In this document: one piece after another, positions 6,839-53,571 of the stretch
Position numbering within the stretch: the stretch's first letter is position 1
Layout: each line of letters starts with the position of its first letter
Assembly (NCBI GenBank): GCA_034226945.1
Contig: CP120459.1
Coordinates: 558,001 to 622,000 of the forward strand
DNA from: Picochlorum sp. SENEW3
Lineage: Eukaryota
DNA: 64,000 nucleotides
Direction: 5' to 3'
Position numbers and translations under genes: made by a program
The notes under the pieces: model-generated
What the model saw: only the letters and a program-made list of their open reading frames with translations
Databases searched by the model: none
What the model was told of the DNA's origin: nothing

Positions 6839-7519
6839 CGCACGCAGAAACAGATAGGGCCTTGAGTGGGCATCATAAGAAAGTCGGAATGCGATTCGTG
6901 GCTCACAATGGCCCGTTGATGGGAGGAAGGCCGCTCAGGGTGTCCCCTGACCACGAGATGGCGTATCACAGCGTCGCCGTCCTAAAGATGCCTCCCAGGG
7001 ACAAAGTGCATCATAGGGCACATTGGACATGTACATCGCAGAGAGGACGACACAGGGCGTATACTATATGAATGAAACAAAATATTGACGTATTCGAAGG
7101 ATACGAAGGATATACAATAAACGTTGGACGGGGACAAGGTGCGTGGACATGTGGCGTGTGCGCACTCAGCGTCAGACCGTCGCCGCATTGACGTTTTTAC
7201 ATGCATGAATACCATTATAATATATAAAATATATCAAATAATAGTTTACCATGCTCTGTTGTGTGATCTTTTGCAGAGTTGTTGGTGCAACGGCACTGTG
7301 CAGGATGAGCAAGGTTGCGTGGGAATAGGGATTCTTATTTTTAATTTGGAAGGATTATAGCATTCAGACATATCATTTAATTGTACTGAAACTATTCATA
7401 ACGAAAGAAGTGGCGAATTCGCGGCATAATTTTTTCAAGGTGCAAGAGCTTTGTTTTGTTGGACGAGCTTACGAATTTGAACAATATACGCTCAAAAACT
7501 AGAATAGGAAAACGTGACG

Positions 7520-10500
7520 ATGAATAATAATGATCAGGGGGTTCGGGATGGATATTATGCATCGAATATGAATGATCAGAATGTCCATGGATTGTTTCAT
7601 GGTCTGAATTTGGGTCAACAGCAGTTTGACAGTGTTGGGGACCACCATCACAGTGGCAATGGAGGACACTATCAGGGTAATCACGGGGGACACTATCAAC
7701 AGTTTCCACCGACTTCATTTGGTTTGGCTCAGAGGAGTGGGTCGATTGGGAATCCAGTGCAGCCCATACTAGATCTTGCTGACGGTGGGGTTGCAACAGA
7801 GGTGCCACTGGCTGGGAACGTGAATCCATACCAGGCTGCTGCAAGTTTTCCTCATCATCACATGAATTTCATGCAGTATTCTGCTGCTGGTTTGGACCTG
7901 CATCACGGGCAGGATGTGCCGGGGATGTTTCAAGGAGGGCATGGCTCCATGGCACCATCCTTGGTTGGATTTGAGAGCCACGGGATGCCTCATCAATCAC
8001 ACATGGGATGGGGTGGTCAGGCTATTGAAGATACTCAGAATGGACAAAAAGCCATGTGGTTTGGAAAGGGACAGCCCCAGAATCGTCATTACCAGAACGG
8101 GAATGGCAACAGGAGAGGCCGATACAGAGGCAAGTCTCAAGGACGCAGTGGCACACGAAATTTCTCAAGGCAACGATCTGGAACGTATGATGGATCGAGC
8201 GATTCTTCTGATGTGTCTATCGACGATATACTGATGACTGTGTCACAAACTCCAGAGCATGAGGCAGTTGGGAGCAATGTCTTTGATAGTCTGTTGTCGC
8301 TTGATAGCAGGGCTGTGGCGTCCCTGCTCAAGGAATTGCTTCGCATGGGGCTTGCTGCGAGAGCGGTGGAGATTTTTGATCGTATTCGAACATCTGACCC
8401 AAATAGTCCCTTGAGTCTGTCACTGATGGATGTATTTACGTATACTGCTGCGATTTCTCTGTGCATTTCTACACAGGATGTTGACAGAGCCTTGTCTCTG
8501 GCCTCTGAGATGAAGCAGAAGAGGATCCAATGCAACGTTCATACATACACTGCATTGATGAATGTGTGCATTAAATGTTCTAGATATGGACGTGCGCTCG
8601 AAACATATGAGGCGATGAGAGCAGACGGTTGTGTCCCAAATGTCGTTACATTCAATACGTTGATTGATGTGTATGGCAAAACAGGTGCATGGGAGCAAGC
8701 CATCCAAGTGCTGGATACAATGAGAAGAGAGGGCGTGAATCCAGTGTTAAGAACATATAATACCCTCTTGATTGCATGCAATATGTGCAACCAGCCTAGG
8801 GAGGCAATATCTGCATATAAGAGGATGTTGGAGGAAGGTTTTACACCGAATTCAACCACATACAATGCATTGATATCAGCCTACGGGAAGTGTGGACAAC
8901 TGGATCGGGTGATGGAAGTTTTCCAAGAGATGACGAGCAGAGGATGCGAGAAAAATGTCATCACCTTTTCTAGTCTCATCTCTGCATGTGAAAAGGCTGG
9001 TCAATGGCAGCTTGCACTCGACTTGTTCAAGGAGATGAGAAGAGAGCGCTGCAATCCAAATACAGTCACGTTTAATTCTCTGATCACTGCTCTGGGACAA
9101 GGAGGCCAATGGGAAAAAGCACTTCAGATATTTGACCAGATGAAGTCAAGAAACTGCACTCCTGATGTAGTGACATACACTGCTCTGATATCTGCAATGG
9201 AGAAGGGTGGCCAATGGAGATTGGCTCTCGAGTCTTTTGAAAGGATGAAAAGACAGGGCTGCAAAGCCGATGCTATTGTGTACAACGCAGTAGTGAATGC
9301 CTTGTGGGAGACAGGTATTGTGTGGGCGCAGAAGCATGCATTGCGGGTTTTCAAACAAGCTGTATCAGAGGGTCACTTCCCCCAGCAAACGTTGGTACCA
9401 GGCTTGCTGCGTGCAGAAGTTAACCTCCATGCAACAACGTCGGGTGTCGCCATGCTCTCTTTGTATGAATGGCTGCAAAATTTGCAACAGTTTATTCAAG
9501 AATATGGAGAAGGGTCTGTTCCGTCAAAGGTTACCATTGTCACAGACAGGGGCCGTGGAGCGAGAGAGCAGGGAAACCTTGTCGTAAAAGAAGCTGTTAC
9601 TGCGATGATGATGCATTGGAAATCCCCCTTCATGCTTTCTGGACAGAGGCATTATGCTAGTAGTCCCTCTCTGGAAGCAACAGGAGCAGACTTGGCTGCA
9701 TGGGTCATTTCTGAAAGTTTTGACAAGGGAATTCATTCATTCTTCTCTTGCTCTAATTATGGTGCAACAGAAGAGTTGGATGACCCTGGCGAACAAGTAG
9801 AGAAGGAGGTCCAAGAGAGGTGCTCGGCAGCATTTGCTGCTGTCAAACACTTTGAGAAGACACACTCCTTGTCAGTGCAGAATATGGGTTACCTTTATCT
9901 GCAAATGCGAGCAGATTTAGTTCAGAACTGCATAAAAATCAATACTGAATTGGGTGGTCCCGAAGAGTCTGTACAAGATGCAGTTCTATTGATGGACCGG
10001 GTCATGTCAACCAGTTTGAACTTTGCTTCTGAGGTTTTCGATCTTTTGGCCGCAGCGTGCGTTCTCATTGCATATAACCAGCTTGAATCGTCATCTCCGT
10101 TGGAAAAATGTGACAATGCACAAGTGGAAAAGGCTGCTGGACTTCCCATGTGGGCAATCAAGAGAATGGAATGGAGCATCCTTCAGGTTTTGGGCCAAGA
10201 CACTGCTTCCATATCAAGCATACGATGCGTCAAGCTCTTCATGGAGAGGCTTGGGACAGAACAATTACCTAAAGCTGCAGCAGACGCACTGATGGGAGAT
10301 GCTAAAGGACTATGTCTGGACTGTGTATCGGACACAGCCTTTCTGAATTGCCGTCCTTCAATAACAGCAGCTGCTGTCATTTACGTGGACAGGAGGAATA
10401 GAGGAATCATTCCTTTCTGGCCATCATCTTTGGCAAAACTCAGTGGGTATACGGACGTCTCTGCCTTGGAATTGTCAATTGCAATCAAATCTGCTCAGCG

Positions 10501-10852
10501 CATATGTGGAAGCAGAAGTCAGGATTTGGAGAATGAGTTTGATGATTTGCATCAATCAGCAGAAGTCTTGCAACCTTCTATAAAGCATTCATCAAACGAG
10601 GCCTACTTGCTCTCACAAGATGGCGGCGATGTGGCTGCTCCTCAAAGCACTGTTGCAAACATTTCAGCAGACAGGCAAGCAATCCTGGAGTCTCTTCAGC
10701 AAATGGTTGCTCGATCGGTTGGCCCAACTACACCTGAAGATACAGATGTGAGTGCCCAAGGAGGGAGCAGTGGGGATCAGTGCTCGACAAATCCAAGTTC
10801 AAACAATGAAAATTCGTCCTCTGGCCAATCGAGTGAAGATGGCAAGGCATAG
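7520..10852 (+). CDS. PPR-SMR-cyclin multidomain protein
   Basis: About 9 tandem 35-aa P-type PPR repeats (e.g. PNVVTFNTLIDVYGKTGAWEQA), then an SMR-like segment (VNLHATTSGVA...VTIVTDRGRG) and a cyclin box (MRADLVQNCI...SVQDAVLLMDRVMS...LAAACVLIA...MEWSILQVLG). First ATG is at 7520. Confidence 0.9.
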   Translation: MNNNDQGVRDGYYASNMNDQNVHGLFHGLNLGQQQFDSVGDHHHSGNGGHYQGNHGGHYQQFPPTSFGLAQRSGSIGNPVQPILDLADGGVATEVPLAGNVNPYQAAASFPHHHMNFMQYSAAGLDLHHGQDVPGMFQGGHGSMAPSLVGFESHGMPHQSHMGWGGQAIEDTQNGQKAMWFGKGQPQNRHYQNGNGNRRGRYRGKSQGRSGTRNFSRQRSGTYDGSSDSSDVSIDDILMTVSQTPEHEAVGSNVFDSLLSLDSRAVASLLKELLRMGLAARAVEIFDRIRTSDPNSPLSLSLMDVFTYTAAISLCISTQDVDRALSLASEMKQKRIQCNVHTYTALMNVCIKCSRYGRALETYEAMRADGCVPNVVTFNTLIDVYGKTGAWEQAIQVLDTMRREGVNPVLRTYNTLLIACNMCNQPREAISAYKRMLEEGFTPNSTTYNALISAYGKCGQLDRVMEVFQEMTSRGCEKNVITFSSLISACEKAGQWQLALDLFKEMRRERCNPNTVTFNSLITALGQGGQWEKALQIFDQMKSRNCTPDVVTYTALISAMEKGGQWRLALESFERMKRQGCKADAIVYNAVVNALWETGIVWAQKHALRVFKQAVSEGHFPQQTLVPGLLRAEVNLHATTSGVAMLSLYEWLQNLQQFIQEYGEGSVPSKVTIVTDRGRGAREQGNLVVKEAVTAMMMHWKSPFMLSGQRHYASSPSLEATGADLAAWVISESFDKGIHSFFSCSNYGATEELDDPGEQVEKEVQERCSAAFAAVKHFEKTHSLSVQNMGYLYLQMRADLVQNCIKINTELGGPEESVQDAVLLMDRVMSTSLNFASEVFDLLAAACVLIAYNQLESSSPLEKCDNAQVEKAAGLPMWAIKRMEWSILQVLGQDTASISSIRCVKLFMERLGTEQLPKAAADALMGDAKGLCLDCVSDTAFLNCRPSITAAAVIYVDRRNRGIIPFWPSSLAKLSGYTDVSALELSIAIKSAQRICGSRSQDLENEFDDLHQSAEVLQPSIKHSSNEAYLLSQDGGDVAAPQSTVANISADRQAILESLQQMVARSVGPTTPEDTDVSAQGGSSGDQCSTNPSSNNENSSSGQSSEDGKA

Positions 10853-11214: not shown

Positions 11215-11984
11215 CTATGCTGCTGTAGGTGCCGCCCTGCTCGATAATGCAGCCACACCAAACCCAATGCCAACCAAAACTACCCAACCGGCAACGTCAT
11301 ACCAAAAATCACTAATCATTGGCTCTTTTCTGTTTCCTGCTGCTGCATCTCCCCCAGAGGCTTTTCTCCCCTCACCTCCACCCATGGCTCCTCCTGCAGC
11401 TTGCAACTGTTTCTGTAACTCTGCATACAACTGTGGGGCTTTAGAAGACATCTCAAGAGCCCTTTTGTAGGAATCATTCGTTGGCTCGAACTCGACTGCC
11501 TTTTTAAAGCAATCCCCAGCCTTGTTGAAAAACTCATCTGCCTTCTCAGACGTTGGCGACAAAAATCCTTGCGACGTGTACGCATTTCCAAGACACCAAA
11601 GAGCGTCATGACGTGCATCATCAATATCCAGTGCCTGCTGAAACTTGGCAATAGCATCCTCAATCATGGAGTATGCCTCCTGCCCTTGTCTAAAGTGTGC
11701 CAACTCCAACAGAGCTCCGCCCCACTTTGTCAACGCCTGTATACATTCAATAACCACGATTAATGTAAACACACAGTCAGTAGGCACGCAGATAAAGGGA
11801 ATCCGCACCAGGGCATCCTTATTGTTTGCAGTAAATTCTCTTTCGGCCTGCTCCCGCGCTTGTTCAAAGAACATCAGCCTACATATCATATAAATTTAAA
11901 TGTTATTTACGAATATGCGTATAGATGTGCGCCAACCAGAAGGAAAACACACCTTTCAATGTCTTCTCTGCTCAGTGACTCCAT
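11215..11984 (-). CDS. TOM20: Plant-type mitochondrial import receptor TOM20 (3 exons)
   Basis: Spliced product MESLSREDIERLMFFEQARE...ALTKWGGALLELAHF...ALWCLGNAYTS with a C-terminal TM (SDFWYDVAGWVVL). Inferred introns 11879-11952 and 11737-11808. Confidence 0.88.
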
Positions 11985-12627: not shown

Positions 12628-13227
12628 TCACAATTGGACACACGCTTTTCTCTCTTCCTTCTCCTGCGTTTCCTTGCAAATCATACACGTCTCATCCAAC
12701 GGTATCATAAGATCCCCAGTAGTCTGACTCCTACAGGATACCACCCCCAGGCCTTTTTCAGCAGTTGTCAAGTAGTATGCTCGAGCGTCCCCCAAAGACA
12801 GCACCTTTGCTCTTACAATATCTCTTGGTCTAAAACAACGATGAACTTCTAGTGCGTCAATATCGCTCGACCGAATATCTGAGTTTCGAATCAATCCACT
12901 GAATTTTTCAACAACGTCCTTGCCTTTCACCTGTAGTATATCTAAAAAGACGTGTTTCTGAGATATTCTGACAACCTTGCACACAACTACATCCCCAACG
13001 CGGGGGATCAAGACGGGACTAGGGTGCTCTTGAACAACGTGTACCACAATGTAAGAATCTCCGTCTTCTTGAACCGTCTTCTCTACCACCTTGCCCACAA
13101 GAGACGAGCAAATGTAGTTCCCACTCTCAAATGTTCCTAGTCCAGCTCTGTACTGCGTGGTTCCATCCAGCACTGACGCGAGTCTTTCTCCAGGGGTACA
13201 GAATCTATCAGTATTCTCATCAGTCAT
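12628..13227 (-). CDS. CSL4: Exosome complex component CSL4
   Basis: FCTPGERL, YRAGLGT, an S1 domain (PRVGDVVVCKV; CFRPRDIVRAKVLSLGD; YYLTTAEKGLGVV) and a C-terminal ribbon (CMICKETQEKEERK). Likely start is MTDEN at 13227; the upstream ORF extension is not CSL4-like. Confidence 0.92.
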   Translation of the reverse strand: MTDENTDRFCTPGERLASVLDGTTQYRAGLGTFESGNYICSSLVGKVVEKTVQEDGDSYIVVHVVQEHPSPVLIPRVGDVVVCKVVRISQKHVFLDILQVKGKDVVEKFSGLIRNSDIRSSDIDALEVHRCFRPRDIVRAKVLSLGDARAYYLTTAEKGLGVVSCRSQTTGDLMIPLDETCMICKETQEKEERKACVQL

Positions 13228-13663
13228 ACTGAATGAAAAATGAATCAAGTTGCAAAACCGGTATGCCACGTATATGCATGCGTTTGCACCACGATGGTCG
13301 TCACCCATCAACAACCTTTTTTGATAGGAGGACGCCTCTCCATCAGAATCGCTGGATTCTCCGTAAAAAGATGACAAAAAATGACACACAAGTGAGTAGA
13401 CCATGGCCATCATGTGGCAGTATTATTTGATCAGGGATTCATCAAGTAATAAAAGCATATACCACTTTCCATGTACGTTGTAAAGAGGCATGCGAGTGCA
13501 AGCCAACGGTGGTGGCATGTCTCGTCACCTTGACTGCGGCGGCCTAAAGTTTCTCTTCGAAACAGGCCTAGCGATGTGATTGCCGAGTTCATTTTGTTGA
13601 CAATAATAATTATTATACTTCTGTGACGCAGATAGTAAACATTGTTGACAAGACCATAGAAAA

Positions 13664-24910: not shown

Positions 24911-25276
24911 TTATATTCCTTCTTCCATTTCTACAAGCTATTTGGATTTTTATCCATGTTACATGGATTTACTTTTTTCGTACTAATAATATGTATACTG
25001 TGTTGTCAACGTCTGAGATACTGAGTGTAAAATAAATGACCCTTTTTGTAGAACACCACTCCTAGAGGATGCTTATGCGTCGCCATATACCATGAAGGTC
25101 GTCCACATGGCAAAATACCTCCTGGACTCACACAGGATGCAGAAGTAAATGGGAGATCAAAGGTGCGACAGACCCATTAAGAAATTATCATTGAGATTCT
25201 TTATCGAATGAAAGATCAGATGAATGATTCGGGAACACAAACTTGGCCGAAGGAGCTTTGTTAAGTGTGATTTGAC

Positions 25277-28011
25277 ATGCTGAAACTCGCAGCAAGGAAA
25301 GCGAGCACGTTCTACCCTCTTTCGAGGCATTTTTACTCTTTGAATTTACAAAGAAATCATTCTACTGTGACATCTGTTGCATGCATGGCGCAATTAGAGC
25401 TAGGAAAGGCGGTACGTTGTAACCAAGAAACAGTCTGCCACACCAATTTTACCTATTACTTTATGCGCAGGCTATCGTCAGGATGCTACCGAATGAGCCT
25501 TCCATGACAATTCAGGTCCAAATAGGTGGCAAGGTGAGGAATTTAGACAGGCCTCAGGATGAACTGGTCGAGAAGCCACTGATGAGACTACAAAAGTCTG
25601 CTTGTCAGAATCCGAAGAAGAAGAAGAAGAAAAATTCTGTCGAGGCCGAGGTTGTTCAAGCAGAGGTTCCCCAGGTATCAATTTATATGGGTCCTGATGA
25701 ATCGTATCCGGCGTTGGATCCGGGTACAACAACGAACAGAGATGCTTGGAGGCAAGACTATCTTTTGAAAATTGGACAGGCTGCATATTCAATAATTGTG
25801 AACCCTCCAAGCGTTGAGAAGCTCCATGTCCATGGAACTGTTTTCTCCGGAATCCCTATTATACCACATCTTGACGCGGTTTTCACGGACTTTGTAGAGT
25901 GGCAATGGGAAGTTCGAAATCAGAGTAATGAATGGGTTTCTGTGTCTCGAGGAAAGCATCCAGCATGTACTCCCTCAGAAAATGATGTAGGATGCATGTT
26001 ACGAGTTTCTTGTACACCAATTCAAAATAGAAGCAAGTTAATTCATGAATCGCGTAAGGAGTATGAGCTGCGAGGATTTGGATCAACGTTGGAGATTGGG
26101 CCAGTACATCCAGCCCCACCCAGTGCATCTTTGGGACGGATCCCCAACGACCATTCCTGGACAACGCCTCCAGAATTTAGAGTGATGACGTATAATATAT
26201 TGGCTGATCAGTATGCGTCAACAGATACTGCAAAGAATGAAATTTTTTCACATTGCCCAAATGAATTCTTGGAATGGCAGTACAGGAGGCCATTGATTTT
26301 CAAAGAAATTCTCGATTATAAACCCGATATTGCTTGCTTACAGGAAGTAGATGCTTCTGCTTTCAATCTTCTACTGGATCCTAGCCTGAAAGAATTTGGA
26401 TTTGAAGGCGTGTACACGAACAAGGCCGGGCGCGTTACTGAAGGTAGTGCTACATTCTGGAGAAGCGATAGATTTCAATTGGTGGATAGATTGGAGATGG
26501 AAATGAGGCAATTCTTTCCAAAGAACTCTTCCCAGGAGGAAATCAGCCAATCACCTTTGGGACCTGCACTAAGACCCATGTTGCAGTCGTCGCCAAATTT
26601 GTGTGAAGCACTGCAAAAGGTTGGAACAATTGCACAGCTGACATTGCTTGTTCCCCATGGCCCTCCGTCAAGCTGGGGTCTCTCGCGGCCTCTCTGTGTC
26701 ATCAACACTCACTTATTTTACCATTATGCTGCCCCCCATATTCGAACTATCCACGTCTGGACAATGTTGCGTCAGGCAGAGGAATTTATTAAGAGGGCCA
26801 TGGTTGATCATGAACATGCCCTTGGAGGATTAAGGCCAAGTTTGCTCTTCTGTGGTGACTTGAACTCGGACATAAATGATGGTATTCCTGGTACAGTCCA
26901 ACTTCTTCGAACGGGAAACGTGAGTGAGGATTACTGGGATTGGAGATTCGGTACAGACTTTGCCTGGGGAAATGCTGGGAGAGGTCAAGATGAGGAGGAA
27001 TCAGGTGAGTTGGCCAAGATGGTCCACTCTGATGTTGAAGGCCTCAGCCCGGTGCGTCAGGCAGATTCAAACCTTCCGATTGTTCCTGGAGTATCCCTCA
27101 AATCTTTTTTTCCTCTAGAAACTGCCGACGGTATGATTCCAGAGTTTACAAACTTTGTCAAGGGATATCAAGGACTGTTAGATTACGTTTGGTTCCAGCA
27201 GGACTTTATTCGGGTGAATGGAGTTGCACACTGCCCGACTAAAATGAAACTAGGTGGTTATCTTCCATCAGAACAATATCCATCTGATCATCTTGCTGTC
27301 GTGGCTGACTTGGAATTTGTAGAGGAGCAACAGCAGATTGCTAAAACAATGATGCATCCTCACGGGACCCACATGGAAGCAGCATTTCGTAATGTACCGT
27401 TTGCTGAAGATGCTCTGCAGAGAGAGCAAGTTATCGCTGTACCAACAGATACGATTTATGGTATAGCCGGTCTCGCATCATCATCAAAGTCTATTCAAGA
27501 AATCTATGCAATCAAGCGAAGGGACTTTGAAAAGCCGCTTGCTGTTTGCGTTGCAGACCACGAAGACATACCAGACATATGTCATGTAGACCATCTTCCA
27601 CCAAATATTCTGAAACGATTGCTTCCAGGGCCTGTCACCGTGGTATTAGATAGGAAGAAAGGGTGTCCCGGGCTATCTGATGATTTGAATCCAGGCATTG
27701 ATGCACTAGCTGTCAGAATCCCAGATTTCCCCTTTCTCAGGGCAATTTGCAGACAGGTTCAAACCCCTTTAGCACTGACATCAGCGAACATTAGTGGAGA
27801 TCAAAGCCCAGTACGAACAGATGAGATGGGTGGCGTCGCAGAACAATGCGCACTCATATTTGATCATGGGTTCCTCGGTGAGCAGAGGTCAGGATCCACA
27901 ATCATAGACTTGCGAAAGCCTAGCGCATTTTCAATCATTAGAGAGGGCTCGGCGTTTGAAGAAACAGTGAGCATTCTAACACAGAATGGACTTGTTCTTG
28001 AAGAACGATGA
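25277..28011 (+). CDS. Fusion protein: PDE12/CCR4-type EEP deadenylase plus C-terminal YrdC/Sua5 threonylcarbamoyl-AMP synthase
   Basis: Exon 1 25277-25411 (presequence-like), intron 25412-25470, then one open frame. EEP motifs: TYNILAD, CLQEVD, CGDLNS, LDYVW, PSDH. YrdC motifs from about 27349: VPTDTIYG, KRRDFEKPL, PGPVT, TSANISG, STIIDL. Confidence 0.9.
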
Positions 28012-28056
28012 CGATACATGAGCATTACTTGGTCTTACACAAATTGCATACATACA

Positions 28057-29200
28057 TCAAAGCCTATCAGGCACCTGGATTGTCAAATCATACAAATACA
28101 CATTCTTGTCAAACACAGCTCCCAAATCGGCCAATTTATTGAAGAACGTGATGAAATCAATCTCATAATCTTGTCTAAATGTTGTCGCTCTGCTCTTGTC
28201 ATACTTTTGTTTCCAAGCATCAAATGTGGGATCTTGTGCAAAAGCAGCCTCTGCTGCAGCTGGATCATCCTCTGAGGCTGTCCACAACAAAAATGTAGGC
28301 CTCTCCCAGAAAGGAGCCTTCTTACCAAGTGGCCCTCCAAGTTGAGAAGGGTCCTTCACGTTCAATGCACCCATGAATGCCTGCACCTCGGCTGAGGAGG
28401 ACCCTGGTCCTGGGATATTCACATCAGGATCAGGCCCAGTACTGTCCACCCTGCCAAGCTTGACTTCGAATGGGTTTCCAAACTGCTGAGCAAGAGTCTG
28501 ACTCTTTTCTGACCGCGCAGCCTTTTCTTTATTCCACGACAGCTCAGTCGTCACCTTGGTAGCCAACACAATTGTATCTGCCCAAGACACCATTGCCTGT
28601 GCTGGAGGCCCATTCGCCTTCACCGCCTCCCGAACTTTACGCAATTTGCCAACCAAAGCATTTAAATCGCGATTCACAGGGCGTTTCAATTCCTCAGCCG
28701 TCGCAATTGACCCGTTCATGCCACCAGTCTTGGTCTTGGCATCAAATGTTGCAGCATCATGAATCAACAATCGCATCGCCGCTGGGGCATCAGCGGCAGT
28801 CAAAACACTCTTCATCTCCTTCTCAATTCGTTTCTGCATCATTCAACAATATTCCAGGCTCATGATGGATGGATCACACAACCACGCTGAAGAATACATC
28901 AACATCATCAAGCACACACATTACCTGAAAATCAGCCAACAAGTCCCTCTTCTGAAAAGCAGATAATGCGCTGCCCTTGATCACTTTGTCCACCAGCTTG
29001 GCCTCTGCAATATCAGGTACAATCAACTGGGTCCCCACAGAGACAGCCATACCTCCAGCAATGCCCGTCAAAACCTGACGTCGATCTGGATCAGCGACCG
29101 AGCAAACCACCCTGGACACCCTTCCATTCAATCCAATCTGCCCAGAGTATGCGCTTTTTGATAGATTGATTTTCTGAGATCCAATCAGACCCGCCTTCAT
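28057..29200 (-). CDS. Thylakoid lumen 29-kDa protein (TL29/APX4-like peroxidase fold)
   Basis: Twin-Arg signal (DRRQVL), RLLIHDAATFD..TKTGGMNGSI, SWADTIVLA and KLGRVDS. Inferred intron 28834-28924. Confidence 0.85.
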
Positions 29201-30433: not shown

Positions 30434-31528
<1,095 letters not shown>

Positions 31529-37672: not shown

Positions 37673-39096
37673 ATGGATGCTCAAGAACAAGAGCAGGAAG
37701 CAATTGCTTTGGAAGCAGAGATACAGGCATTGCGACATAAATTGCATGCATTAGAGTCGCAGTATTCCAACCATATGGCACGGGATACTGGAGTGTCCTC
37801 GCATCACCGCAGTGGCACATGGGATGCATCTGGTCATGGGTTGTCGAAAGGGCAGGTTGAACGATACAGCAGGCAGATTATACTTCCCAGTTTTGGTGTA
37901 TCAAGTACGTGATGCATCTTCATTGGTACATAGTGTGCAATGCTGATGTATTGTATGGTACATGTGCAGGTCAGTCAAAACTCTGTAGAGGGTCTGTTCT
38001 TGTTGTTGGAGCAGGTGGTCTCGGTAGTCCTGCGCTATTGTATTTGGCTGCTGCGGGGGTGGGAAAGATTGGTATTGTCGATAGAGATGAAGTCGAATTG
38101 AGTAATATTCACAGACAAGTCATCCACAGGGAAGCTGATGTTGGAGTGGCCAAGACAACATCAGCAGCAGAGGCTATCAAGCAGATCAATTCATCGATTG
38201 ATGTCGAAGAATACACGGATGGTTTTACACCCAAAAATGCCCTAGATATCATTGAAAAGTATGATGTTGTCATGGATGCGTCAGATAATGCGCCAACAAG
38301 ATATCTCATTAGCGATGCATGCTGCATTGCACAGAAACCGCTGGTGTCAGGGGCAGCAATAGGAACAGACGGGCAACTGACCGTGTATTGTTACGGAGAC
38401 GCTGGGCCATGTTATCGATGCTTGTATCCAAACCCACCACCAGCGCAGAATTGTGCTCGCTGTGCAGATGCTGGTGTTCTAGGTCCAGTTCCAGGAGCTA
38501 TTGGTACACTTCAGGCATTGGAAGTGATCAAGATCATCTCTGGCATTGGGGAAATACTGTCAAAGAAGATGTTGATAGTGGATGCGTTATACTGTCGGTA
38601 TATGACTGTGAAACTACGGTCAAAAAGCGACTCGTGTGTCTCATGTGGATCAAACCCATCAGTCACAAGGGATTCCTTGCCCACCTTTGATTATTTTGCT
38701 TTCACTGGTCAACCCAGCGCTTCAGACGCGCCCACAAGCCTGAATCTAGTGGATCCTACCCATCGTATTACAGTAGCAGAGCTAGTAGAGAGAATGGAAA
38801 AGGATCCAATGCATCTTGTTGTGGATGTCCGACCACGACACCAGTTTGATATTTGTAGCATCCCTGGATCCATCAATGCTCCAATGCAGGAACTCGGTAA
38901 TCACATTGATACCATCAAGGGAATGATACAACAAGATGGTGATGCAGTGCCAATCAGTGTCATATGCCGCAGAGGCAACCAGTCCCAAAGGGCTCTACAA
39001 GAGCTCCATGGACTGGGGTTCACACACGCTGTCGATGTGATTGGAGGAGTTCAATCTTGGAGCAGTTCCATCGACCCCTCATTCCCATTATATTAA
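37673..39096 (+). CDS. MOCS3: Adenylyltransferase/sulfurtransferase MOCS3/CNX5/UBA4 (MoeB + rhodanese)
   Basis: RYSRQIIL, GAGGLGSP, SNIHRQ, CYRC and rhodanese CRRGNQS. Inferred intron 37905-37969. Confidence 0.95.
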
Positions 39097-42009: not shown

Positions 42010-43599
42010 ATGAGAATTTTGTCTGTACATGCTCAAAACAGATCCTCGATAGGCATACTCAATTCTGCAAATTCTAGACCTGTGCCTGTTGTCAAGGGAT
42101 GGATAGGGGCGAGGCCCGCTGTTTCTAGAAACCGATTGACATGTGGCCACATAGTTGTCGGTCGTCGTGGCACTCCTGTGGTCGCAGCACAGTCTAGTTC
42201 AGCCTCTGAGGATGCTGATGTTGACAATGTAGTAATTATTGGCAGTGGTCCGGCTGGATACACGGCTGCCATCTATGCCTCGAGGGCGAGCCTGAGTCCA
42301 CTCGTGTTCGAGGGATATCAGGCAGGTGGAGTCCGTGGAGGGCAGTTGATGACGACGACCGAGGTTGAGAATTTCCCTGGTTTCCCTGAAGGGATTACAG
42401 GGCCAGATTTGATGGATCGTATGAGGCAACAGGCTGAACGTTGGGGTAGCAATTTGTTGCTGGAAGATGTGGAGTCTGTGGATTTGTCTGTGAGGCCATT
42501 TGTGATCAAGGGCACAGAGACAACGGTGAAGGCGCATAGTCTGATCATCGCTACTGGAGCAACAGCAAAGCGCTTGAATATTCCTTCAGAGGAAACATTC
42601 TGGAGTCGCGGGATTAGTGCGTGTGCTATTTGTGATGGGGCATCTCCAATATTCAAAGATCAAGAGTTGGCTGTGGTTGGTGGTGGGGACACTGCCACGG
42701 AAGAGGCTGTGTATCTCACAAAATACGGTAAGCATGTTCACTTGCTTGTCCGTGGACCAACGATGAGGGCGAGCAAGGCTATGCAGGAGAGAGTACTTGA
42801 GAATCCAAAGATCACTGTCCATTTCAACACGGGTGTGGAGGATGCATATGCTGATAAGAAGGGTGCCATGGGGGGATTGCATTTGTTGAATAATGAGACA
42901 GGAGAGAAGAAAGACTTGCCTGTTCGCGGGCTGTTTTATGGAATTGGTCATAATCCAAACAGTGCCTTCCTTGATGGACAGGTTGAATTGGATGAGGCTG
43001 GATACGTCAAAGTGAAGAATGGTGGTCCATGGACCAACGTCGAGGGTGTGTTTTCTGCGGGAGATTTACACGATGTGGAATGGAGACAAGCTATCACTGC
43101 AGCTGGAAGCGGATGCATGGCTGCATTGGCGGCAGAGCGATACCTGACTGGAAATAACTTGGTTGTTGAGAAGGAAAAGAGTGAGGAGCGTGTTTCAGAA
43201 TCAGAGCAGAAGAAGAAGAAGGATTCCGAGGAAAAAGAGGAGAAGGGCAAGATGTCTATGGAAGAGGAATTCAACGTGTATGCTGACAAACATCGTGGAC
43301 AGTATGCTTTGAGGAAGCTCTACCACGAGAGTGACAGACTCGTCACTGTCTTGTACACCTCGCCAACCTGTGGACCATGCAGATCTTTGAAGCCAATCTT
43401 GAACAAGGTTGTGGATGAGTACTCTGGAAAGATACACTTGGTCGAGATCGATATCGCAGAGGATCCAGAGATTGCACAGGCTGCAGGTGTGAATGGAACT
43501 CCAACTGTCCAAATGTTCAAGAACAAGGACAGAGTGGCAAACCTCCCAGGCGTCAAGATGAAGAATGAATACAGAAAGTTAATTGAAGGAAACTTGTGA
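42010..43599 (+). CDS. NTRC: NADPH-dependent thioredoxin reductase C
   Basis: Transit peptide, [21 protein letters not shown] active site and a C-terminal thioredoxin domain (TCGPC). Confidence 0.96.
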
Positions 43600-51396: not shown

Positions 51397-51674
51397 GATG
51401 GGTGATTTTTTATTTTATGGAAAGCGCGATTGCATCATCATCTGGGTTGTACTGCATGATGCCAAACTGGCAGGGGATTCACACATTGCATTTTGGCAAG
51501 ACAGATCTAGATCTCCAATATTGGATTAATCCTGGGGATCTCTTATGTAAGAGATCTCGCCAGGAGGAGGTTGAAATTGAAAAGCCCATCCGATCCCATG
51601 ATACGTCCGTGATGGTTTACATAACAAAAATAATAGTTACTCCCAACACATATGCAATAAATAATGTCGATGGG

Positions 51675-53571
51675 ATGATGGATGAGGAGAGGGTAAAGAG
51701 AAATACGAGTGAAGAATTGTTTGCAGCATCTTCTCAATTCCAAGGTTCTCGGGAGGGATACTATTTTGGATGCGGAGACAGGGGTGTAGGATATTATATG
51801 GATGATGTATATGGTACGAAGAAGCGGCTAAAGACGGATCGATTTGCAGAGGTACGAGGTGGTGACGAATTGCTTCAACTGGTTGAGAAGGAGGCTGGGA
51901 TGTCGTCCCGTGGCCAGGATATCGATGCGAAGGGGTTGAAGAGGTTGCTTCAGAATCTAGAGAAGAGGTTTAATGTGAATGTGGAGCAGCGAGTGAAGTA
52001 CTCTGGGGAGCCACAGAAGTTTATGGAGTCTGAAGTGGAGTTGGATGAGGCTGTGTGTGCTCTGAATGTAGGTTGCGTTCTTTTATGGATCTGAAGACAT
52101 ATATTTCATGTCGAGATGATATTGTTATGTTTTTATTGTTGTAGGCTGTGACTGCTTCCGGGAATTTATATCATATGCTTGCGAGTCCGGATATTATTCA
52201 AATATTCTTGGCATTGGTTCAGCATGAGAATGGGGATATTGCCGCTGATACAATACAGCTCTTGTCAGAGCTGACAGAGGCGGATGCCGTTGAGAGTTTC
52301 GTACGTATATTCTTGATTGAATTAATTGTTGATGTGTATCGATTTGTCGTCACGCATAACATCAAATGTATATTTAGGAGGAGGAGGCTGGTGGCCTGAT
52401 AGATGCCCTTTTGGAGGGAGGATTGGTTCGCGTTCTTGTACAGACGTTGGAAAAGCTTGATGAATCTGTGAAAGAAGAGGCATCAGCAGTGTATAGTTCG
52501 TTATCTGTCTTGGAGAACTGCATCGATGTGAGGCCTGAATGTGCTCCTGGGGTGGCTGCGACAGCAGGTGTGATGGAATGGTTTTGCAACCGACTCAGCC
52601 CCAAGGCAGCGGTTGATAGTAATAAGCAGTATTCGTCAGAGGTGCTTGCTGTCTTGCTTCAATCAGCTGGTGTGGATGCACGGGTGAAGTTTGTTGAACT
52701 TGGTGGGGTCGATACGGCATTATTATCCATTGCTCCATACAGGTCCAAGGCGATGCAGACACCAGAGGAGGAAGAATTCGTAGAAAATGTTTTCGACGTG
52801 TTGTGTGCAGTGTTGATGGAAGACTGCGCAAAGCTGTCATTTTTAGATAATGAAGGAATCGAACTGATGATTCTGATGATCAAGGGCCGAACTGCAATCA
52901 GAACAGCTGCAATCAAGTGTTTGGACTTTGCAACGACAAAGTTCAATAAAGCTTGCGAACGCAGCGTAAAGAAGGGTATACTTGCTGTTATTTTTGGTGT
53001 TTTTATGGGAAAGCTGAAAATTAAAAAAGGGGACAAAAAGATGAATAAGAAACATATGGAGACAAATAGAAAGGAGGAAGAGATCCGTTGTGTCTCAGTA
53101 GTAAATAACCTTTTTGTGGGACTCGTCGATGATGAGGAGGGCAGGGCAAGATTGATTAGCAAATTTGTAGAATCAGAATATGAAAAATGTGATAGGTTGA
53201 TTGAGGTTTTGGTAGAATATGCTTCTAAAGTTGCCGTCGAAGAAGAACGGATCGCCCATGTCTTTGGTCAGGGTGGGGTGGTTGATGAGGATGAGATACT
53301 TTTAGCGCGAATGGATGCAGGCCTTTTCACGCTTCAACAGTGTGCTCTGATTATTGCTGAACTTTGGGCATCCAAGGATCATGGATTGAGGAAGAGAATA
53401 TTGCTCTTGCTACACCAGCACGAGTACACACTAGGGCTCATTCGAACATTAGTTGCAGAGTATGTAAAGTCTTTGGGCCCGATTGAAGAAGCAACGTCAG
53501 ATGGCTTACACAACCCCCAACTCCATATAACCAGAGTTACAGAGTGCCTCGAAATGCTTGTTAATCAATAA
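51675..53571 (+). CDS. CTNNBL1: Beta-catenin-like protein 1 (spliceosome NTC component), 3 exons
   Basis: PQKFMESEVELDE, HENGDIA, NKQYSSEVLAVLLQ, EEEFVENVFDVLC, KFVESEYEKCDRL and MDAGLFTLQ. Introns 52068-52144 and 52301-52377 restore the frame. Confidence 0.92.

Follow-up and report, generated by a model that had tools for sequence, protein, structure and literature searches.

The window analysed here is a stretch of 64,000 nucleotides (nt) of Picochlorum sp. SENEW3 (contig CP120459.1 of GenBank assembly GCA_034226945.1, positions 558,001 to 622,000 of the forward strand). On its + strand, at 25277-28011, lies a gene in which a nuclease of the PDE12 type is followed by a YrdC domain, a predicted synthase of threonylcarbamoyl-AMP (TC-AMP). 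We find that this is a genuine spliced nuclear gene coding for one two-enzyme polypeptide. Its features are listed below in positions of the window; amino acid (aa) numbers, such as N238 at codon 26194, count from the ATG at 25483 and not from the spliced start.

25277..25411, + strand: exon 1, start codon and 45 codons (135 nt), coding for a basic, hydroxyl-rich and acid-poor N-terminal extension
25412..25470, + strand: intron of 59 nt (GTACGT...CAG, with GT..AG ends), skipped in an RNA contig of run X11
25471..28011, + strand: exon 2, 2541 nt, the remaining coding sequence with the stop codon at 28009-28011
25483..25485, + strand: second in-frame ATG, codon 50 of the spliced product, directly after the extension; candidate start without presequence
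25486..26184, + strand: PDE12-type N-terminal region (aa 2-234), with the NRDAW...NPP motif at aa 85-109 and an immunoglobulin (Ig)-like beta-sandwich at about aa 102-200
26185..27318, + strand: endonuclease/exonuclease/phosphatase (EEP) catalytic domain (aa 235-612), from PF03372 and the alignment to PDE12 structures
EEP signature codons: N238 (26194), E288 (26344), D290, N408, H410, D459 (26857), N461 (26863), D567 and D602-H603 (27286-27291)
27319..27387, + strand: linker of about 25 aa (aa 613-635, VEEQQQIAKTMM...), bounded by aa 612, where the PDE12 alignment stops, and by aa 636, where TIGR00057 begins to match
27388..27966, + strand: YrdC/TsaC (Tcs1, type 1) L-threonylcarbamoyladenylate synthase domain (aa 636-828)
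YrdC signature codons: K678 (27514), R680 (27520), S767 (27781) and N769 (27787)

The list of open reading frames (ORFs) gives most of the gene as 842 codons from ATG to stop (25483-28011, + strand). This frame is open from 25423, and the in-frame stop upstream of it (TAA at 25420) falls within the intron. The ATG at 25277 is a genuine start but belongs to another frame, in which unspliced read-through stops after 76 codons. The intron was predicted because the N-termini of homologues bridge the two frames: three relatives (P0002, P0005 and P0009) are colinear with exon 1, match the peptide from 25277 and then continue into the main frame. It was later seen as a spliced joint in run X11, where a contig of 1742 nt (depth 178.8) omits exactly the 59 predicted nucleotides, which indicates that X11 holds spliced RNA, from a strain about 2% diverged. 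The spliced product of 135 + 2541 nt has 891 aa and one terminal stop only. A preliminary description of the locus had one stop-free frame running from 25277 through both domains; the two domains do share a frame (25483-28011), but 25277 lies in the other one and is joined to it by removal of the intron.

Out of 20 listed runs (9 studies) that match all or part of the stretch, four were compared with the gene. The DNA contigs of X5, a separate study, cover 25206-26756 (2 mismatches, no gaps) and 26792-27989 (contig 16; 3 mismatches, no gaps), the latter crossing the domain junction. A second contig of X11 (27004-28100, gap-free) covers the final third of the nuclease domain together with the linker and all of YrdC. 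Within 25277-28011 none of the four runs shows an indel, the only indels lying after the stop, from 28013 on; the stop or indel at the junction that the preliminary description had allowed for is thus absent from all four, and contigs bridge the junction. Among the listed strain variants 24 of 39 sites fall at codon position 3, as purifying selection would give. It is likely that one transcript reaches from the first ATG as far as the stop. These contigs of X5 DNA and X11 RNA, which cover the junction without an indel, speak against an artefact in which neighbouring genes were joined by misassembly, by a sequencing error at a stop codon or by read-through; so do the linker, in frame and only about 25 aa long, and the same architecture in 106 fetched proteins, including a Stichococcus ORF derived from a transcriptome (MMETSP). 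The sole gap in the evidence that an artefact could use is the want of one contig or read across the whole gene, and we regard it as effectively refuted.

The metatranscriptome X20 was not used as evidence: its contigs are short and 90-95% alike, one of them begins inside the intron, and they may represent a relative's DNA or unspliced RNA. Directly downstream, a 261-aa ORF of the peroxidase family (28057-28842, - strand) converges on the fusion gene, with 45 nt between the stop codons. One RNA contig of X11 extends over the two genes, so that they probably overlap at their 3' ends.

The N-terminal half is, judged by alignment, a whole PDE12-type module, nearer to PDE12 than to CCR4/CNOT6, nocturnin or angel. 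Pfam places Exo_endo_phos (PF03372) at aa 235-603 (E 9.9e-11, 42.2 bits against a cut-off of 24.5), and the best solved relative found with phmmer is human PDE12 (4z0v, E 2.8e-45, aa 102-612), of which chain residue 1 pairs with aa 102 of the query. PDE12 chains range from E 2.8e-45 to 2.3e-42, against 2.4e-22 for CNOT6, 4.7e-22 for nocturnin and 3.7e-15 for ANGEL2, and the second- and third-ranked Atlas clusters for the window protein are PDE12 clusters. With BLASTP, a fish PDE12 is colinear over aa 2-612 (fish aa 40-579 of 580; 30% identity in 635 columns), NRDAW...NPP included. IG_AIR9 gives a weak Pfam match at aa 140-182, below its cut-off. N238, E288, D459, N461, D567 and D602-H603 align with PDE12 structures and are common to fish and octopus PDE12; the role of each catalytic residue we take to be the one assigned in the EEP literature. 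We infer that the Glu of LQEVD corresponds to E351, the residue mutated in dead human PDE12.

In comparison to human and other animal PDE12 (4z0v, 4zkf, 4z2b), the window protein has the same N-terminal region with NRDAW...NPP, the same Ig-like and EEP domains, colinear end to end, and all catalytic residues, and both begin with a presequence-like N-terminal stretch. In contrast, animal PDE12 ends where the linker of the window protein starts (fish aa 579/580) and has no YrdC, whereas the EEP domain of the window protein carries extra loops, and its activity and location are predictions.

The C-terminal half is, by its motifs and profile scores, a t6A-type, type-1 TC-AMP synthase (t6A, threonylcarbamoyladenosine). 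Pfam reports Sua5_yciO_yrdC (PF01300) at aa 644-822 (E 3.4e-42, 144.4 bits) and the NCBIfam equivalog TIGR00057 scores 128.4 bits against a cut-off of 123.2. NF007919, the model for the E. coli type of TsaC, stays far below its cut-off (73.5 against 175), so that the domain is not of the enterobacterial subtype. K678-R-R680 and S767-A-N769 align with the same motifs in Sua5/TsaC structures and are invariant in 33 fused proteins; the KxR/G...SxN signature separates YrdC/Sua5 from YciO (PMC3223725; papers with a PMC or DOI number are cited here from those parts of their text that were available). Neither a SUA5 domain nor a Kae1/TsaD-like partner domain was found on the window protein in the Pfam and NCBIfam scans, and the protein ends 14 aa past the TIGR00057 match. 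The hypF model reaches 26.7 against a cut-off of 466, and apart from YrdC the protein matches no families but Exo_endo_phos and, weakly, an Ig-like one. The nuclease and YrdC domains that the preliminary description had called complete are both borne out, the first by NRDAW...NPP (aa 85-109), N238, E288, D459/N461, D602-H603 and the match to 4z0v that makes it PDE12-type, the second by K678-x-R680, S767-x-N769 and the t6A-type model TIGR00057 above its cut-off; the short linker it had pointed out is present as EFVEEQQQIAKTMM.

Among the matches listed, the best stand-alone relatives of the YrdC half are streptophyte proteins named 'YrdC domain-containing protein, mitochondrial', of the AT5G60590 type. 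Identity to an AT5G60590-like plant YRDC is 48% over 200 aa (window aa 641-840 against 75-273), which takes in the mature domain from end to end, and recombinant Arabidopsis YRDC makes TC-AMP (PMC11077089). Plant YRDC of this type and human YRDC share the KxR...SxN motifs and likewise have no SUA5 domain. Plant and animal YRDC are, however, stand-alone proteins of about 275 aa with an N-terminal extension of their own, whereas the domain in the window forms the C-terminus of a nuclease. Other YrdC fusions are known, namely Sua5 (YrdC+SUA5), HypF and TobZ (both YrdC+Kae1-like), TsaN and Mycoplasma TsaC/HemK. These also join a TsaC-like domain to a partner from the same or a related pathway, and such fusions have been used by Rosetta-stone logic in t6A research (PMC4615747, PMC10321239, PMC9654439). 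The partner in the window is different: an EEP 3'-exonuclease and not a carbamoyltransferase, a SUA5 domain or a methyltransferase.

The two halves are held together by a linker that belongs to the shortest class in the family: the spacing between the SDH and PTDT motifs is 50 aa in the window protein against 33-105 aa in 33 fused proteins. Methionines within the linker (aa 623, 624 and 631) were considered as an internal start for YrdC and dropped, being not conserved in the relatives compared; nor do contigs reveal where a transcript starts.

The preliminary description had implied that such a fusion is rare. This did not hold, as the architecture is already widespread and, to a large extent, annotated. 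A whole-protein search gave both Pfam families on 38 of 54 homologues. Of the 389 proteins fetched, 106 have a match to each half at E <= 1e-10, in all 106 with PDE12 before YrdC. Among the best 50 representatives at 50% identity 34 are fused, 22 of which have at least 800 aa. The top cluster of the ESM Atlas (56 members, all eukaryotic and most commonly Chlorophyta) carries PF01300 on 100% and PF03372 on 98% of its members. Re-scanning with Pfam gave both families in six of six named fused proteins tested, and EEP only in four of four Chlamydomonadales tested, whose proteins end with the EEP domain. The named carriers comprise at least 14 green-algal species of three classes and one haptophyte record:

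Trebouxiophyceae: Micractinium (2), Auxenochlorella, Elliptochloris, Myrmecia, Apatococcus, Trebouxia (2) and Stichococcus (transcriptome ORF, MMETSP)
Ulvophyceae: Ulva, Bryopsis and Ostreobium
Sphaeropleales: Raphidocelis and Tetradesmus
Haptophyte, one record: Diacronema lutheri

Signature residues (10 of the nuclease and 9 of YrdC) are kept in all named carriers, with gaps only at KxR in Tetradesmus and at D567 in Myrmecia; in 33 fused proteins D567 is nearly invariant and the other signature residues are invariant. On this comparison a chance origin of the architecture is excluded, both families being carried by 38 of 54 homologues and the 19 signature residues being kept across fused proteins of 37-64% identity. 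Identity of the fused relatives to the window protein is about 35-64%, the nearest (55-64%) being metagenome proteins. Entries with the same two Pfam families in the same order, such as those of Micractinium conductrix ('2,5-phosphodiesterase 12'), Auxenochlorella protothecoides, Ostreobium quekettii, Ulva mutabilis and Raphidocelis subcapitata, are only 35-46% identical to it.

In UniRef, NCBI and JGI the entries are named automatically as 'Threonylcarbamoyl-AMP synthase' (e.g. Ostreobium quekettii) or '2',5'-phosphodiesterase 12'. Annotation pipelines thus name the fused proteins after one half only, and counts of 'TsaC users' in algae silently take in a nuclease fusion. The architecture was not described in the literature searched (bioRxiv supplements and most subscription journals lay outside the search). 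The available parts of the t6A reviews PMC4615747, PMC9654439 and PMC10321239 list the HypF, TobZ, Kae1-Bud32 and TsaC/HemK fusions and not PDE12-YrdC; those of PMC8348895, PMC9181182 and bioRxiv 10.1101/2022.11.12.515357 do not describe it either, and a table in the review of mitochondrial RNases marks PDE12 as animals only (PMC9181182). The architecture is therefore public and automatically named, yet undiscussed as far as the literature was searched.

Two trees were made of the nuclease half (IQ-TREE in quick mode, with SH-aLRT support only). The clade of the window protein has 100% support in both (7 rows in the first, 5 in the second), and in the first it is nested in a 97% clade with Micractinium and Auxenochlorella (Chlorellales-type), which places the alga among Chlorellales-like trebouxiophytes. 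The unfused proteins are all from Chlamydomonadales (Volvox, Gonium, Edaphochlamys, two Chlamydomonas, Haematococcus and Sanguina) and form one group (8 rows in the first tree and 7 in the second; support 94 and 89), which sits in a clade of Chlorophyceae (99 and 97) beside the fused Sphaeropleales. Polytomella has a long branch and is unplaced in the second tree. The simplest history suggested by these trees is that the fusion is ancestral to core chlorophytes and that the YrdC half was lost once.

In the second nuclease-half tree the core-chlorophyte clade (99) does not take in Diacronema and four further fused lineages. These form a group again in the tree of the YrdC half (96), which argues that the fusion is older or wider than the core chlorophytes. 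The fused protein of Diacronema (Pavlova) lutheri has 823 aa and keeps all 19 signature residues; this record may reflect a fusion older than the green algae, a transfer or a contaminant. The five state changes in the YrdC-half tree were not trusted, since its 'stand-alone' rows may be fragments; its resolution is too low for counting fusion events or for placing the fused domains with respect to streptophyte YRDC.

The loss in Chlamydomonadales can be set beside the published distribution of Sua5, which among green algae is reported from Chlorophyceae only (7 of 7 proteomes), with none in 6 proteomes of other Chlorophyta or in 113 of Streptophyta (PMC10321239, Supplementary Table 1); the Sua5 of Volvox most resembles one from a mucoromycote fungus, and the available parts of the same paper make no mention of a nuclease fusion. 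Loss of the YrdC half thus took place in an order of the very class in which a foreign Sua5 was acquired. Being replaceable by Sua5, the fused YrdC would have done the general job of TC-AMP synthesis, and its disappearance in one order, from a class reported with a fungal-like Sua5, amounts to a clean evolutionary experiment. In Arabidopsis AT5G60590 is the only Tcs1/Tcs2 gene, and both types in one genome are rare (PMC4615747). No second YrdC/Sua5 gene was seen among the 33 large ORFs of the 64-kb window. From the published proteome counts and from orthology, the fused YrdC is probably the sole TC-AMP synthase of the cell; as it looks orthologous to the single plant YRDC, it probably serves the whole cell and not an organelle alone.

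The retention of the nuclease where YrdC was lost bears also on the substrate of the EEP domain, which might be a small nucleotide (2',5'-oligoadenylate, an NADP(H)-like compound or a stray adenylate such as TC-AMP), making it a metabolite-proofreading partner of YrdC. PDE12 does cleave 2',5'-oligoadenylate as well, nocturnin has been reported as an NADP(H) phosphatase (PMC9181182), and the product of YrdC is a reactive adenylate. Yet the nuclease persists where YrdC is gone; moreover, the nearest relatives are PDE12 proteins and not nocturnin, and the protein keeps over its full length the N-terminal architecture by which PDE12 faces RNA. We consider a small-nucleotide substrate very improbable.

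The first 45 aa, encoded by exon 1, contain 1 D/E, 6 K/R, 8 S/T and 13 A/L and look like an organellar presequence. The anchor motif occurs in 28 of the 52 proteins that were examined, and 11 of the 28 have a similar basic-rich extension, 46-88 aa long. With its extension the long form would be directed to an organelle, of which the mitochondrion is the likeliest. The human PDE12 is located in mitochondria and removes poly(A) or spurious oligo(A) (PMC3177208, PMC8348895). Polytomella has likely lost its plastid genome (PMC5363391), and Polytomella parva (P0245/P0393) has an intact, unfused PDE12-like gene with its residues kept, which argues that the nuclease is not an enzyme of plastid RNA.

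For the YrdC half, two compartments have precedents. Yeast Sua5 is described as reaching both cytosol and mitochondria through two in-frame AUGs, the first of which adds a presequence, and human YRDC is dual-localised through a weak presequence, though mostly cytoplasmic (PMC5951830). The window gene resembles these one-gene, two-compartment systems in having an ATG at 25277 and another at 25483 behind the extension. It differs from yeast Sua5 in that an intron separates the two ATGs, so that intron retention could also matter, and the use of the second ATG is suggested by analogy. If the YrdC half is the cell's only one, part of the protein must work in the cytosol, and a form free of the presequence, e.g. 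from the ATG at 25483, would stay there.

It might be argued that the protein is chiefly a cytosolic housekeeping TC-AMP synthase, with the PDE12 module serving in cytosolic RNA turnover or RNA binding and an extension that is no transit peptide. The mostly cytoplasmic human YRDC (PMC5951830) would fit such a role, as would the second ATG at 25483 and the 17 of 28 homologue models with the anchor motif that begin at the conserved block. However, relatives conserve the protein sequence of exon 1, the spliced RNA contig includes this exon, and its composition is presequence-like. The catalytic EEP residues are all invariant, which argues against a mere binding role. Taken together, a chiefly cytosolic protein appears quite improbable.

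On balance we think it probable that the gene encodes a bifunctional, organelle-targeted and probably dual-localised tRNA-maturation enzyme of which both halves are catalytically competent. The PDE12 half would be a Mg2+-dependent 3'-to-5' exoribonuclease that trims spurious oligo(A) from organellar tRNA and rRNA. The YrdC half would convert threonine, bicarbonate and ATP to threonylcarbamoyl-AMP, for use by transferases of the Qri7/Kae1 type that install t6A at position 37 (t6A37). The fusion would chiefly secure co-expression, co-delivery and a 1:1 ratio of two activities on the same RNA pool, while the two chemistries stay independent.

A number of observations weigh against this bifunctional enzyme or parts of it. 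With respect to the gene model, no single contig or read of the four runs spans the whole gene, contigs cannot reveal where a transcript ends, and the point at which the two X11 contigs meet, 27003, lies within the EEP domain and not at the linker; as there is one depth per contig, and the second contig also covers the convergent peroxidase-family gene, we draw no inference on an internal transcript start at 27003. With respect to the domains, PF21171 (PDE12-like_N), found in many relatives, was not reported on the window protein at E <= 0.01, and PF01300 is missing from the precomputed lists for Trebouxia sp. C0005 (P0235), Chlorella sp. A99 (P0045) and Caulerpa lentillifera (P0252), which could be truncated models, paralogues or independent losses. 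Targeting is read from composition only, and 17 of the 28 homologue models with the anchor motif are without extension, which may be an effect of gene calling. Finally, only 4 of 41 branches in the YrdC-half tree are well supported, the case for a sole TC-AMP synthase comes from published proteome counts and orthology rather than from the genome of Picochlorum itself, and Sphaeropleales, though Chlorophyceae, keep the fused YrdC, so that the account by Sua5 replacement is incomplete.

A closer relation of the two halves than co-delivery would be a true mechanistic coupling on the same tRNA, in which YrdC with its transferase holds an ANN-decoding tRNA while the nuclease cleans the 3' end, or in which the 3' end gates t6A formation, as a quality-control device. 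All 106 two-part proteins, from lineages only 35-64% identical, have kept their domains in one order; this constancy and the short linker are consistent with such coupling. So are reports that E. coli YrdC binds tRNA-Thr lacking t6A (PMC3223725), that archaeal KEOPS grips the 3' CCA end through Cgi121 (PMC11077089) and that human PDE12 and YRDC both act on mitochondrial tRNAs (PMC8348895). Nonetheless, tRNA is not needed for TC-AMP synthesis, and Arabidopsis KEOPS modifies tRNA without CCA, at a reduced rate (PMC11077089). In Chlamydomonadales the nuclease is intact without an attached YrdC, which shows that any coupling is not obligatory, and streptophytes have YRDC alone, with no streptophyte PDE12-type match among the 120 matches listed. 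Such coupling thus seems unlikely, and we continue to favour co-delivery of two independent activities.

Tentatively, and as a somewhat doubtful extension, core green algae and at least one haptophyte record may share an arrangement in which the sole TC-AMP synthase is tethered to a PDE12-type exonuclease, so that 3'-end proofreading and t6A37 licensing meet on the same tRNA, the tether having been cut once, in Chlamydomonadales, after a foreign Sua5 took over. If this is true, the fusion acts as a Rosetta stone and predicts a functional or physical link between PDE12 and YRDC in animal mitochondria, where they are separate proteins on the same tRNAs. The t6A37 modification is among the few universal tRNA modifications, and no enzyme other than PDE12 is known to rid human mitochondrial tRNAs of spurious oligo(A). 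A fusion kept over several algal classes is comparative evidence that the two belong to one functional neighbourhood, a link that is not mentioned in the available parts of the t6A reviews or the PDE12 literature. The fused protein is also a natural construct for testing the 3'-end status of a tRNA against the modification of its anticodon loop.

Scans of the window with Rfam and for tRNAs gave no matches. Several other genes of RNA maturation lie nearby: a ThiF+rhodanese protein at 37909-39096 (+ strand; MOCS3/Uba4-like, of the tRNA thiolation pathway), an rRNA adenine dimethylase at 30434-31495 (- strand) and a CSL4-like exosome subunit at 12628-13413 (- strand). Their sharing of the 64 kb is probably a coincidence in a compact genome.

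At 7514-10852 (+ strand) an ORF of 1112 codons combines many pentatricopeptide repeats (PPR; aa ~267-562) with matches to the N- and C-terminal cyclin domains (aa 779-983) that only just pass their cut-offs in Pfam; either two genes have been merged in this frame, or it codes for an unusual PPR-cyclin-like protein. The halves of a catenin-beta-like (CTNNBL) protein fall in two ORFs (51402-52094 and 52411-53571, + strand), presumably one gene with an intron of about 300 nt, longer than the 59 nt of the fusion gene. Finally, the window holds an NTRC-type fusion of thioredoxin reductase and thioredoxin at 42010-43599 (+ strand) and a plant-specific TOM20 at 11215-11889 (- strand), which together point to a green-lineage nuclear origin of the window.

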